NCBI RefSeq assembly: GCF_003334815.1
Contig: NZ_QOWO01000083.1
Origin: Escherichia coli
GTDB lineage: Bacteria; Pseudomonadota; Gammaproteobacteria; Enterobacterales; Enterobacteriaceae
Strand: one strand, 5' to 3'
Length of the DNA: 3,340 bases
The notes beneath the pieces were generated by a model. The model was not told the origin of the DNA. It made no database searches and was given only the letters and a program-made list of their open reading frames with translations. Of this stretch, positions 1-3,340 are shown in pieces. How positions within the stretch are numbered: the first letter of the stretch is position 1; every line of letters begins with the position of its first letter. The translations under genes and the position numbers were made by a program.

Positions 1-102
1 GCTGAACTGTTGCTGGAAGACTACAAAGCCTCCCTGAAATATCTCAGCGATCACCCGAAACTGCAGGGTATTGCCCAACAGAACAGCTTTAAACATACCT
101 GA
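1..102 (+). CDS. gadB: 3' end of glutamate decarboxylase (partial; N-terminus lies upstream of the window)
   Basis: Frame 1 is open from base 1 and translates to [33 protein letters not shown], ending at TGA 100-102 with a second in-frame stop TAA at 103-105. This matches my memory of the E. coli GadA/GadB C-terminus; gadB rather than gadA is inferred because gadC follows directly. Identity is from recall, not a search. Confidence 0.85.
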
Positions 103-122
103 TAACGTTTAACGGTAACGGT

Positions 123-148
123 GTCCCGAAACGAACCCGTTTCGGGAC
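123..148 (+). other. Stem-loop in the gadB-gadC intergenic RNA: 11-bp perfect stem (GTCCCGAAACG / CGTTTCGGGAC) with 4-nt loop AACC, no U-tract after it
   Basis: Direct reading: bases 123-133 are the exact reverse complement of 138-148. The downstream sequence is AATTTCC, so it is not a canonical intrinsic terminator; it could be a partial attenuator, a processing site, or a 3' stabiliser of the gadB message. Confidence 0.5.
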
Positions 149-191
149 AATTTCCAAAGTCTGTTCACTGGCATTAGCAACGGAAAATATT

Positions 192-212
192 GTTCTGAAT
201 ACGCTTCAGAAC
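192..212 (+). promoter_or_regulatory. Perfect 8-bp inverted repeat GTTCTGAA-N5-TTCAGAAC in the gadC leader
   Basis: Direct reading: 192-199 is the reverse complement of 205-212, with spacer TACGC. It sits about 45 nt upstream of the gadC start. Function is unknown; it could be an RNA hairpin or a dimeric protein-binding site. Confidence 0.3.
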
Positions 213-246
213 AAAACAGGTGCGGTTCCGACAGGAATACCGTTTT

Positions 247-252
247 AGGGGG
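247..252 (+). promoter_or_regulatory. Shine-Dalgarno sequence for gadC (AGGGGG)
   Basis: Purine-rich AGGGGG ends 5 nt before the ATG at 258, which is canonical spacing. Confidence 0.7.
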
Positions 253-257
253 ATAAT

Positions 258-1793
258 ATGGCTACATCAGTACAGACAGGTAAAGCTAAGCAGCTCACAT
301 TACTTGGATTCTTTGCCATAACGGCATCGATGGTAATGGCTGTTTATGAATACCCTACCTTCGCAACATCGGGCTTTTCATTAGTCTTCTTCCTGCTATT
401 AGGCGGGATTTTATGGTTTATTCCCGTGGGACTTTGTGCTGCGGAAATGGCCACCGTCGACGGCTGGGAAGAAGGTGGTGTCTTCGCCTGGGTATCAAAT
501 ACTCTGGGGCCGAGATGGGGATTTGCAGCGATCTCATTTGGCTATCTGCAAATCGCCATTGGTTTTATTCCGATGCTCTATTTCGTGTTAGGGGCACTCT
601 CCTACATCCTGAAATGGCCAGCGCTGAATGAAGACCCCATTACCAAAACTATTGCAGCACTCATCATTCTTTGGGCGCTGGCATTAACGCAGTTTGGTGG
701 CACGAAATACACGGCGCGAATTGCTAAAGTTGGCTTCTTCGCCGGTATCCTGTTACCTGCATTTATTTTGATCGCATTAGCGGCTATTTATCTGCACTCC
801 GGTGCCCCCGTTGCTATCGAAATGGATTCGAAGACCTTCTTCCCTGACTTCTCTAAAGTGGGCACCCTGGTAGTATTTGTTGCCTTCATTTTGAGTTATA
901 TGGGCGTAGAAGCATCCGCAACCCACGTCAATGAAATGAGCAACCCAGGGCGCGACTATCCGTTGGCTATGTTACTGCTGATGGTGGCGGCAATCTGCTT
1001 AAGCTCTGTTGGTGGTTTGTCTATTGCGATGGTCATTCCGGGTAATGAAATCAACCTCTCCGCAGGGGTAATGCAAACCTTTACCGTTCTGATGTCCCAT
1101 GTGGCACCAGAAATTGAGTGGACGGTTCGCGTGATCTCCGCACTGCTGTTGCTGGGTGTTCTGGCGGAAATCGCCTCCTGGATTGTTGGTCCTTCTCGCG
1201 GGATGTATGTCACAGCGCAGAAAAACCTGCTGCCAGCGGCATTCGCTAAAATGAACAAAAATGGCGTACCGGTAACGCTGGTCATTTCGCAGCTGGTGAT
1301 TACGTCTATCGCGTTGATCATCCTCACCAATACCGGTGGCGGTAACAACATGTCCTTCCTGATCGCACTGGCGCTGACGGTGGTGATTTATCTGTGTGCT
1401 TATTTCATGCTGTTTATTGGCTACATTGTGTTGGTTCTTAAACATCCTGACTTAAAACGCACATTTAATATCCCTGGTGGTAAAGGGGTGAAACTGGTCG
1501 TGGCAATTGTCGGTCTGCTGACTTCAATTATGGCGTTTATTGTTTCCTTCCTGCCGCCGGATAACATCCAGGGTGATTCTACCGATATGTATGTTGAATT
1601 ACTGGTTGTTAGTTTCCTGGTGGTACTTGCCCTGCCCTTTATTCTCTATGCTGTTCATGATCGTAAAGGCAAAGCAAATACCGGCGTCACTCTGGAGCCA
1701 ATCAACAGTCAGAACGCACCAAAAGGTCACTTCTTCCTGCACCCGCGTGCACGTTCACCACACTATATTGTGATGAATGACAAGAAACACTAA
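258..1793 (+). CDS. gadC: Glutamate:gamma-aminobutyrate (GABA) antiporter, APC superfamily, acid-resistance system 2
   Basis: Uninterrupted 512-codon ORF (511 aa plus TAA) with a strong SD. The translation is highly hydrophobic with many predicted transmembrane segments. The N-terminus [22 protein letters not shown] and the His/basic-rich C-terminal tail ending [10 protein letters not shown] match my memory of E. coli GadC (XasA). Position directly after gadB fits the gadBC operon. Confidence 0.96.
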
Positions 1794-1817
1794 CCATGTC
1801 TGAATGGTTATAAGACA

Positions 1818-1846
1818 AGGGAGCGATAATTCATCGCTCCCTTTTT
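1818..1846 (+). terminator. Rho-independent terminator of the gadBC transcript
   Basis: Direct reading: 10-bp GC-rich stem AGGGAGCGAT (1818-1827) / ATCGCTCCCT (1833-1842), 5-nt loop AATTC, then a run of five T (1842-1846). It starts 25 nt after the gadC stop codon. Confidence 0.8.
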
Positions 1847-1862
1847 CGTGCTTGCTGTCGTA

Positions 1863-1891
1863 TTGACTTAACGGGGATAAGTACGAGAATG
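1863..1891 (+). promoter_or_regulatory. Candidate sigma70-type promoter for the downstream lipoprotein gene: -35 TTGACT (1863-1868), about 16-bp spacer, -10-like GAGAAT (1885-1890)
   Basis: Direct reading. The -35 matches consensus at 5 of 6 positions and the -10 at 4 of 6, including the conserved A2 and T6. It lies between the gadC terminator and the 1924 start codon. The -10 is weak, so this is speculative. Confidence 0.25.
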
Positions 1892-1923
1892 AGCGCACAT
1901 CTGTTTACCGGAAACCAGCACAT

Positions 1924-3243
1924 ATGGATATCTGCTCCCGAAACAAGAAATTAACGATTAGAAGACCAGCGATACTAGTTGCACTGGCACTTTTACTGTG
2001 TAGTTGTAAAAGCACGCCTCCAGAGTCCATGGTGACACCACCAGCAGGTTCAAAGCCACCAGCCACGACGCAACAATCGTCACAACCGATGCGTGGCATC
2101 TGGCTGGCCACGGTTTCTCGGCTCGACTGGCCACCGGTTTCCTCGGTTAACATTAGTAACCCCACCAGCCGGGCCCGTGTACAACAACAGGCGATGATCG
2201 ACAAACTGGATCATCTGCAACGTCTCGGCATAAACACGGTCTTTTTCCAGGTCAAGCCGGACGGTACCGCCCTGTGGCCATCGAAAATTTTGCCGTGGTC
2301 CGATCTTATGACCGGTAAGATTGGTGAAAATCCGGGTTACGATCCGCTGCAATTTATGCTCGACGAAGCCCACAAGCGTGGGATGAAAGTACACGCCTGG
2401 TTTAACCCCTATCGCGTATCGGTTAATACGAAGCCCGGTACTATCAGGGAACTGAATAGCACTCTGTCTCAACAACCGGCGAGCGTCTATGTGCAACACC
2501 GCGACTGGATCAGAACGTCTGGCGATCGCTTTGTCCTCGACCCGGGCATCCCTGAGGTTCAGGACTGGATCACATCAATAGTCGCAGAAGTGGTTTCCCG
2601 CTATCCCGTAGATGGCGTGCAGTTTGACGACTATTTCTATACGGAGTCACCGGGTTCACGGCTAAATGATAACGAAACGTACCGTAAATACGGAGGCGCA
2701 TTTGCGTCAAAAGCAGACTGGCGGCGCAACAATACTCAGCAGTTAATTGCAAAGGTATCGCACACCATTAAAAGCATTAAGCCGGGAGTCGAATTTGGTG
2801 TTAGCCCGGCAGGCGTGTGGCGTAACCGATCACACGATCCGCTCGGTTCCGATACCCGAGGCGCGGCAGCCTATGACGAATCCTACGCTGACACCCGTCG
2901 ATGGGTGGAACAAGGATTGCTGGATTACATTGCTCCCCAAATTTACTGGCCGTTCTCACGGAGTGCCGCGCGTTATGACGTGTTGGCAAAATGGTGGGCG
3001 GATGTCGTTAAACCGACCAGGACCCGCCTGTATATCGGTATCGCCTTCTATAAAGTGGGTGAACCTTCAAAGATAGAGCCAGACTGGATGATTAACGGCG
3101 GCGTACCGGAACTGAAAAAGCAGCTCGATCTTAACGATGCTGTGCCCGAAATTAGCGGCACCATCTTGTTCCGTGAGGACTATCTGAATAAACCGCAGAC
3201 TCAACAAGCGGTCAGCTATCTGCAAAGTCGCTGGGGCAGTTAA
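1924..3243 (+). CDS. digH: Outer-membrane lipoprotein with a glycoside-hydrolase-like family 10 (GHL10) domain; divisome-associated glycan hydrolase YddW/DigH
   Basis: Uninterrupted 440-codon ORF (439 aa plus TAA). The N-terminus has a basic n-region (SRNKKLTIRR), a hydrophobic core (PAILVALALLL), and a Cys-containing lipobox-like motif (LLCSC), followed by a Pro/Ser/Thr-rich linker. The rest is a soluble domain rich in aromatic and acidic residues, typical of a TIM-barrel glycosidase fold. Size and position next to gadC match E. coli yddW as I recall it. There is no in-frame start between the upstream stop (1864-1866) and ATG 1924, and none between 1924 and the lipobox, so the start is well constrained even though the SD is weak (GGAA about 10-13 nt upstream). 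Confidence 0.9.
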   Translation: MDICSRNKKLTIRRPAILVALALLLCSCKSTPPESMVTPPAGSKPPATTQQSSQPMRGIWLATVSRLDWPPVSSVNISNPTSRARVQQQAMIDKLDHLQRLGINTVFFQVKPDGTALWPSKILPWSDLMTGKIGENPGYDPLQFMLDEAHKRGMKVHAWFNPYRVSVNTKPGTIRELNSTLSQQPASVYVQHRDWIRTSGDRFVLDPGIPEVQDWITSIVAEVVSRYPVDGVQFDDYFYTESPGSRLNDNETYRKYGGAFASKADWRRNNTQQLIAKVSHTIKSIKPGVEFGVSPAGVWRNRSHDPLGSDTRGAAAYDESYADTRRWVEQGLLDYIAPQIYWPFSRSAARYDVLAKWWADVVKPTRTRLYIGIAFYKVGEPSKIEPDWMINGGVPELKKQLDLNDAVPEISGTILFREDYLNKPQTQQAVSYLQSRWGS

Positions 3244-3276
3244 ACTCCCATTCTTACTTTGTACTGATGAATCCCC

Positions 3277-3300
3277 TAATGATTTTTATCAAAATCATTA
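3277..3300. promoter_or_regulatory. Perfect AT-rich palindrome TAATGATTTT-N4-AAAATCATTA in the intergenic region downstream of digH
   Basis: Direct reading: 3277-3286 is the exact reverse complement of 3291-3300, with spacer TATC. It is too AT-rich and lacks a GC stem and T-run, so it is not a convincing intrinsic terminator; a dimeric regulator-binding site in the next gene's promoter region is more likely. By recalled synteny the next gene would be dosC, whose start is outside the window. Confidence 0.3.
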
Positions 3301-3340
3301 AGTTAAGGTAGATACACATCTTGTCATATGATCAAATGGT

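Follow-up and report, generated by a model that had tools for sequence, protein, structure and literature searches.

Does a 3,340-nucleotide stretch of Escherichia coli DNA, contig NZ_QOWO01000083.1 of assembly GCF_003334815.1, hold anything beyond the genes gadB, gadC and digH (also named yddW), and in particular any novel system? A sequence-only reading of the whole stretch, hereafter the window, had taken it for the conserved gadB-gadC-yddW(digH) locus with no novel system evident. Both conclusions held: the window is a piece of E. coli chromosome carrying the known gadB-gadC-digH locus, 100% identical over bases 1-3263 to annotated genomes, GadC and DigH match their expected families, and no novel system is present. 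What that reading overlooked was the end of a mobile element, of which just the first 77 bases are present at the 3′ end of the window. The best explanation of the whole combines the reference locus, an insertion of an IS10-Left-type insertion sequence (IS) in the spacer between digH and dosC, and a contig assembled with k = 77, and we put its probability at about 0.9. Three of its parts are demonstrated: what the genes are, that synteny is broken at 3263/3264, and that the next 77 bp are identical to IS10.

The comparison with known genomes was made by megablast, employing the full 3,340 bases as query against 5,426 complete E. coli genomes. All 5,426 were matched, with at least 80% of the window covered in 5396 of them. 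Many of the chromosomes align at 100% identity over bases 1-3263, the annotated features beneath the alignments being gadB (or 'gad'), gadC and digH, and in the matched genomes the annotated neighbourhood runs pqqL-gadB-gadC-digH-dosC-dosP, with all genes on the same strand. Comparison with K-12 MG1655, which the sequence-only reading had put forward as the appropriate check, gave the near-identity in conserved synteny that it had foreseen: 3262 of the 3263 bases agree, and the sole difference, C in the window and A in MG1655 at base 1211, falls at the third base of a Val codon in gadC (GTC/GTA) and is synonymous. The MG1655 region (b1493-b1491, NC_000913.3 1,567,504-1,572,045) shares with the window its genes, their order and strand, the spacers and the hairpins. 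The two differ 3′ of digH, where MG1655 has a hairpin with a 14-bp stem, the 13-aa gene yddY and then dosC-dosP, whereas the window enters IS10 20 bp past the digH stop codon. Annotated as b4746, yddY lies between digH and dosC in MG1655.

Every match of 100% identity ends at 3263. An insertion relative to reference genomes was what the sequence-only reading had said would speak against it; one is present at 3263/3264, and the arrangement at the 3′ end of the window is non-reference. That reading had also assigned regulatory structures only to the final stretch of about 100 bp, yet what occupies 3264-3340 is an IS10-family outside end. The features around the junction are as follows.

3244..3263, + strand: native 20-bp 3′ flank of digH, identical to the empty site when aligned to the empty-site allele
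3255..3263, + strand: inferred IS10 target 9-mer TACTTTGTA, the last 9 bp before the IS, fitting NRCNNNGYN
3264..3340, + strand: outside end, nt 1-77, of an IS10-family element (IS4 family; 'ISVsa5 family' in the Prokaryotic Genome Annotation Pipeline, PGAP) of IS10-Left type, by 77/77 identity to IS10-Left of plasmid R100
3264-3286, + strand: terminal inverted repeat and transposase-binding region, IS10 nt 1-23 (anatomy from PMC3159471)
to 3305, + strand: region of the integration host factor (IHF) site, up to IS10 nt +42 (anatomy from PMC3159471)
3309..3340, - strand: 3′ 32 nt of RNA-OUT, the IS10 antisense RNA (Rfam RF00240)

The type of the element was assessed against the two IS10 copies of transposon Tn10 in R100. 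All 77 bases of 3264-3340 are identical to the copy on the jemA/gltS side (NC_002134.1 36132-37460), whereas the copy on the tetC/tetD side, IS10-Right, shows four differences from the window tail, at IS nucleotides 24, 25, 27 and 47. Tn10 has been published with its jem genes adjoining IS10-L and tetD adjoining IS10-R (PMC9412624), and from this order, together with the identity to the jem-side copy, the window end is assigned to the IS10-Left type. In R100 the element is present at its full 1329 nt; the window holds 77, in a chromosomal setting and probably belonging to a lone IS and not to a Tn10. The two R100 copies differ from each other at 15 positions, and PGAP labels both 'ISVsa5 family'. 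A variant unlike canonical IS10, which the mismatches to IS10-Right might suggest, was rejected on the exact match to IS10-Left in the R100 comparison. IS10-Left is classically described as a poorly active copy.

That these 77 bases behave as part of a mobile element follows from the distribution of their matches over many unrelated sites. Searched alone, the tail is found at 6,174 places in 1,803 of the 5,426 genomes, with 100% identity at many unrelated chromosomal and plasmid positions; for the IS10-Left-type end there are 4277 chromosomal places, with as many as 45 in a single genome. At 100% identity this end occurs in 790 E. coli records.

An IS10 end contains the sites on which transposase and IHF assemble the transpososome, and RNA-OUT represses translation of the transposase. 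Transposase contacts have been located from nt +7 to +23, with the IHF site extending to +42 (PMC3159471), and RNA-OUT is 69 nt long, terminating at IS10 nt 47 (PMC5006887), a nucleotide that maps to window base 3310. The RF00240 match in the window covers model positions 39-70, 5′-truncated by the window end, and scores 35.3 bits; it falls under the gathering score of 41 only because it is cut there, and in a complete element, where the identical sequence is uncut, RNA-OUT is matched in full at 97.3 bits. The IS10 literature further speaks of 'fold-back inhibition'. Folding of read-through RNA that enters the IS back over the transposase start was sought in the minimum free energy (MFE) fold of IS nt 1-134, where no such pairing was seen and the stability did not exceed that of shuffled sequences (z = -0.91).

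What has the element interrupted? In the uninterrupted allele a terminator-like hairpin lies 17 nt past the digH stop, with the 14-bp stem GTAACAAGCCGGTG-CTTTACC-CACCGGCTTGTTAC, a folding free energy of -23.9 kcal/mol and a z value of -9.57; in a diverged strain its pairing is kept through a G-C to G-U change. The window departs from the empty-site allele directly after TACTTTGTA, when the 5′ arm of this hairpin has run for three bases. The hairpin is absent from the 3′ tail of the window, which folds no better than shuffled sequences (z = -0.27). The site is normally empty, 5,101 of the 5,103 genomes that match the surrounding 116 bp being uninterrupted there. Target preferences of IS10 have been expressed as a relaxed consensus, NRCNNNGYN, and a strict hot-spot, NGCTNAGCN (PMC4574204), and TACTTTGTA agrees with the former at all four of its specified positions.

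These observations would be accounted for by transposition of an IS10-Left-type element into the digH-dosC spacer, 20 bp past the digH stop and at the 5′ foot of the hairpin. The outside end of the element faces digH, and its transposase gene would run in the + direction, as digH does. A complete 1329-bp IS would then follow the window end, with the 9-bp TACTTTGTA duplicated past its other end and dosC beyond; the duplicated 9-mer would rebuild the hairpin (TACTTTGTAACAAGCCGG) on the far side of the IS. Because the insertion lies at the 5′ foot of the hairpin, digH transcripts would enter the IS and the digH mRNA would lose its native 3′ hairpin. The outward promoter of the IS, pOUT, predicted to lie just past the window end, as does the 5′ half of RNA-OUT, would point back at digH, and the yddY-dosCP region would be moved 1.3 kb farther from it. 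Such effects on expression are deduced from the arrangement of the parts. The insertion is best regarded as a strain marker, which at most might change how the 3′ end of the digH mRNA is formed or how the dosCP operon downstream is expressed.

Why does the window stop within the element? It is the entire 3,340-base source sequence, its first 77 nt being common to gadA and gadB and its last 77 nt being IS10. At the left end, bases 1-77 are identical to the paralogue gadA and base 78 is the first at which gadA and gadB differ. De Bruijn-graph assemblers break off a contig once it has entered a repeat by one k-mer, and with short reads the largest k in standard use is often 77. The window is most likely a whole contig from a k = 77 assembly of this kind, bounded on one side by the gadA/gadB duplication and on the other by multi-copy IS10. 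The same argument, a mild one, suggests two or more IS10-Left-type ends in the source genome: with a single Tn10, the first 77-mer of IS10-Left would occur only once and the contig would have extended further. As the boundaries are best explained by assembler breaks at repeats, nothing should be read into where the window starts and stops.

A second insertion at the same locus is available for comparison. Between its digH and dosC genes, E. coli LCP30S3_I3 (NZ_CM149863.1) has a gene annotated as 'IS4-like element ISVsa5 family transposase'. That element is a lone IS of 1,329 bp, complete with a DDE transposase gene of about 402 codons and an inside-end inverted repeat and identical to R100 IS10-Left at 1329 of 1329 positions, and its first 77 nt equal the window tail; it lies in the same intergenic region as that of the window and in the same orientation. 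Its position is nevertheless different, 17 bp upstream of the window's, with a 9-bp duplication, AGTTAAACT, that overlaps the digH stop (corresponding to window 3238-3246), whereas the window insertion follows TACTTTGTA at the hairpin foot. The two insertions are independent events. They lie no more than 17 bp apart; of 5,103 genomes, 5,101 have this spacer uninterrupted. Two such neighbouring events with a shared orientation give some ground for a more elaborate view, which we consider very doubtful, that the foot of the digH hairpin is a recurrent and possibly selected landing site for IS10, where insertions might alter levels of the septal glycan hydrolase or of cyclic di-GMP (c-di-GMP) signalling and be adaptive in some hosts. 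If so, the effects might be exerted in one of two ways: the digH terminator would be lost and pOUT would drive antisense transcription, or the yddY-dosCP promoter region (c-di-GMP and oxygen sensing) would be uncoupled from its upstream context.

Certain points weigh against the explanation proposed above. A single junction is visible, the rest of the IS, the 9-bp duplication and the flank beyond lying outside the window. The fit of TACTTTGTA to the strict hot-spot NGCTNAGCN extends to only three of six positions. Searches for the exact digH-IS junction among the 5,426 complete E. coli genomes, the GTDB species representatives and the Joint Genome Institute (JGI) metagenome contigs yielded no copy. 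Finally, the explanation of the window as a k = 77 contig is based on general knowledge of assemblers.

The visibility of one junction leaves room for an IS10-mediated rearrangement, whether adjacent deletion, inversion or recombination between copies, after which the DNA beyond the IS would not be the digH hairpin and dosC. The several IS10 copies that the contig break implies for the source genome would be substrates for such recombination, and the JGI metagenome contigs yielded no copy of the right-hand junction expected from a simple insertion (inside end, TACTTTGTA, hairpin). That absence says little, however, because the left junction is likewise missing from the same collections. The four-out-of-four fit to the relaxed target consensus would be equally expected at the end of an adjacent deletion and so discriminates poorly, but simple insertion is by far the commonest outcome of IS10 activity, and we consider a rearrangement unlikely. 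A little less likely still is that a complete Tn10 (IS10-Left, jemABC, tetRACD, IS10-Right) is placed after digH and the 77 bp form its left terminus, in which case the strain would be tetracycline-resistant through the insertion. The end is indeed 77/77 identical to IS10-Left, the outer left terminus of the R100 Tn10, with the four differences from IS10-Right given above, and since a lone IS and a Tn10 both present their outside end to the flank, the window cannot separate them. Against this, lone chromosomal copies of exactly this type are common, as the 4277 chromosomal places and the maximum of 45 per genome illustrate, and the sole other insertion at the locus, in LCP30S3_I3, is a lone 1329-bp IS matching IS10-Left throughout. 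Moreover, to judge from the differences at nt 24, 25, 27 and 47, a k = 77 contig from a genome with a single Tn10 and no other IS10-Left-type end would not have stopped at IS nt 77.

The least probable of the alternatives is that the digH-IS junction is a chimera of assembly or sequencing and that the locus of this strain is uninterrupted. The junction is unique among the collections searched, and the window resembles a short-read contig, the ends of which are its least reliable parts. A random chimera would, however, take no account of the end of an element, and here the IS sequence begins precisely with nt 1 of its terminal repeat, beside a 9-mer that fits the IS10 target consensus; an independent and real insertion of the same element is, in addition, present 17 bp away in a complete genome. 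Insertion of an IS10-Left-type element in the digH-dosC spacer is accordingly the reading retained here.

The remaining features of the window, upstream of the junction, are these.

1..102, + strand: 3′ end of gadB (glutamate decarboxylase B), the last 33 codons (...QQNSFKHT) and TGA, from the annotation of matched genomes
122..149, + strand: perfect 12-bp hairpin with a 4-nt loop in the gadB-gadC spacer, from its inverted repeat
190..214, no strand assigned: perfect 10-bp hairpin with a 5-nt loop in the gadB-gadC spacer, from its inverted repeat and present in both MFE and centroid folds
258..1793, + strand: gadC, glutamate/γ-aminobutyrate (GABA) antiporter, 511 aa, intact, from TIGR00910, a PDB match and RefSeq annotation at equal coordinates
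1817..1846, + strand: predicted intrinsic terminator of the gadBC operon, with an 11-bp stem AAGGGAGCGAT/ATCGCTCCCTT, a 5-nt loop and a T5 run, from its inverted repeat and folds, the T run being read from the sequence
1863..1890, + strand: candidate sigma-70 promoter-like site TTGACT-16 nt-GAGAAT, from a consensus scan, 34 bp upstream of the digH start
1924..3243, + strand: digH (yddW), GHL10-family glycosyl hydrolase, 439 aa, intact, from Pfam, PDB and RefSeq digH at equal coordinates

The sequence-only reading had counted three large, intact open reading frames (ORFs) on one strand. This was right for gadC and digH, which are intact, and wrong for gadB, of which only the last 33 codons and the stop (1-102) are present. 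The ORF listing accordingly shows two long ORFs, both on the + strand, at 258-1793 (511 aa) and 1924-3243 (439 aa), the rest being short or lying inside these in other frames. Antisense and alternative-frame ORFs of 131, 148, 139, 109 and 99 aa, inside gadC and digH, gave no matches at all to NCBIfam and are treated as spurious. The gaps measure 155 bp (103-257), 130 bp (1794-1923) and 97 bp (3244-3340). The errors concerning the ORFs and the final gap leave the main verdict, a known locus of little interest, unchanged: the gadBC acid-resistance genes, digH and IS10 are all already known and well characterised, the biological significance of the window is small, and it can be set aside as being without a new system.

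The identity of GadC is supported by family and structure matches. It scores 1029.7 bits against the NCBIfam equivalog TIGR00910 of the APC superfamily, well beyond the cut-off of 673.5, with residues 1-511 aligned to positions 1-511 of the 511-position model. The same residues match the 511-aa chain of the crystallised E. coli GadC (PDB 4DJI/4DJK) with 1106 bits and an E-value of 0. Its operon context is as expected, the gadB 3′ end lying 155 bp upstream on the same strand. The gadB and gadC genes form the glutamate-dependent acid-resistance operon, in which GadB decarboxylates glutamate with consumption of a proton and GadC exchanges external glutamate for GABA.

For DigH, the assignment of the downstream gene to the GHL10 family was borne out by a match to Pfam PF02638 with an E-value of 7.5e-136, residues 55-389 aligning to positions 1-310 of the 311 in the model; a scan of DigH against NCBIfam gave no matching model. 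Its coordinates coincide with those of RefSeq digH (WP_000350395.1) in genomes 100% identical in DNA, and K-12 b1491 is annotated as 'divisome localized glycosyl hydrolase'. The identical K-12 protein has been described as a hydrolase specific for denuded glycans, located at midcell and the division septum (PMC12288456), and by this identity the DigH of the window would be expected to degrade denuded glycan strands at the division septum. Among proteins of known structure, residues 43-431 align to residues 14-378 of Cwp19 from Clostridioides difficile (PDB 5OQ2), a GHL10 peptidoglycan hydrolase, with an E-value of 5.5e-100. Cwp19 comes from another organism and envelope context; the N-terminus of DigH is lipoprotein-like, and denuded glycans at the septum of a Gram-negative cell are what it acts on (PMC12288456). 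Inspection by eye of this N-terminus, MDICSRNKKLTIRRPAILVALALLLCSCKS (...ALALLLCSCKS), reveals a signal-peptide-like stretch, with a basic and a hydrophobic region, and a lipobox-like L-C-S-C ending at Cys28, atypical at position -2. The sequence-only reading had called the protein a lipoprotein, a term with which this N-terminus would be compatible. Two cysteines, encoded within window 1924-2010, lie in such a lipobox-like context: LLLC26 and LCSC28.

The sequence-only reading had placed regulatory-type structures in the 155-bp and 130-bp gaps, and here it fared well: conserved hairpins, the predicted gadBC terminator and a promoter-like site are located in them. Neither spacer (103-257 and 1794-1923) has an annotated gene or RNA in K-12, and the Rfam scan was empty in both. 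When ORFs of at least 20 aa in the two spacers were listed, only chance ORFs of 20-47 aa appeared, none of them annotated in K-12. A scan of the window for promoter and terminator consensus sequences returned sites at numbers not above shuffled expectation (2 vs 4.2; 5 vs 3.1), which makes the promoter-like site at 1863-1890 weak evidence for a promoter. The scan also missed the gadC terminator, two of its T residues being counted as stem; inverted repeats and folding were relied on instead.

In the gadC-digH spacer, which has a folding z value of -3.64, the GC-rich hairpin at 1817-1846 is seen in both MFE and centroid folds and is expected to act as the gadBC terminator, a function suggested by its form. 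The gadB-gadC spacer folds far better than its shuffles (z = -4.27), and the hairpin at 122-149 is probably a partial terminator or a stabiliser of the mRNA 3′ end between gadB and gadC. In a strain diverged by about 2% (gadC 1.4% and digH 2.2% different), this spacer differs at only one of 155 positions, base 136, in the hairpin loop, and the gadC-digH spacer at two of 130. The palindrome at 190-214, TTGTTCTGAA-N5-TTCAGAACAA, is unchanged in the diverged strain MS1170. In the consensus scan it is terminator-like solely on the - strand, where no gene ends, and its role could lie in protein binding or in RNA stability.

A final observation concerns the far side of the interrupted spacer. Of 5,413 E. 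coli genomes, approximately 1,070 match the digH-dosC region only as far as 45 bp before the dosC start, and E. coli MS1170 retains of dosC no more than a 165-bp 3′ pseudogene fragment, immediately followed by an intact dosP. Since so many matches stop before dosC, and the dosC of MS1170 is a fragment, a large minority of E. coli are without the diguanylate cyclase partner of DosP.

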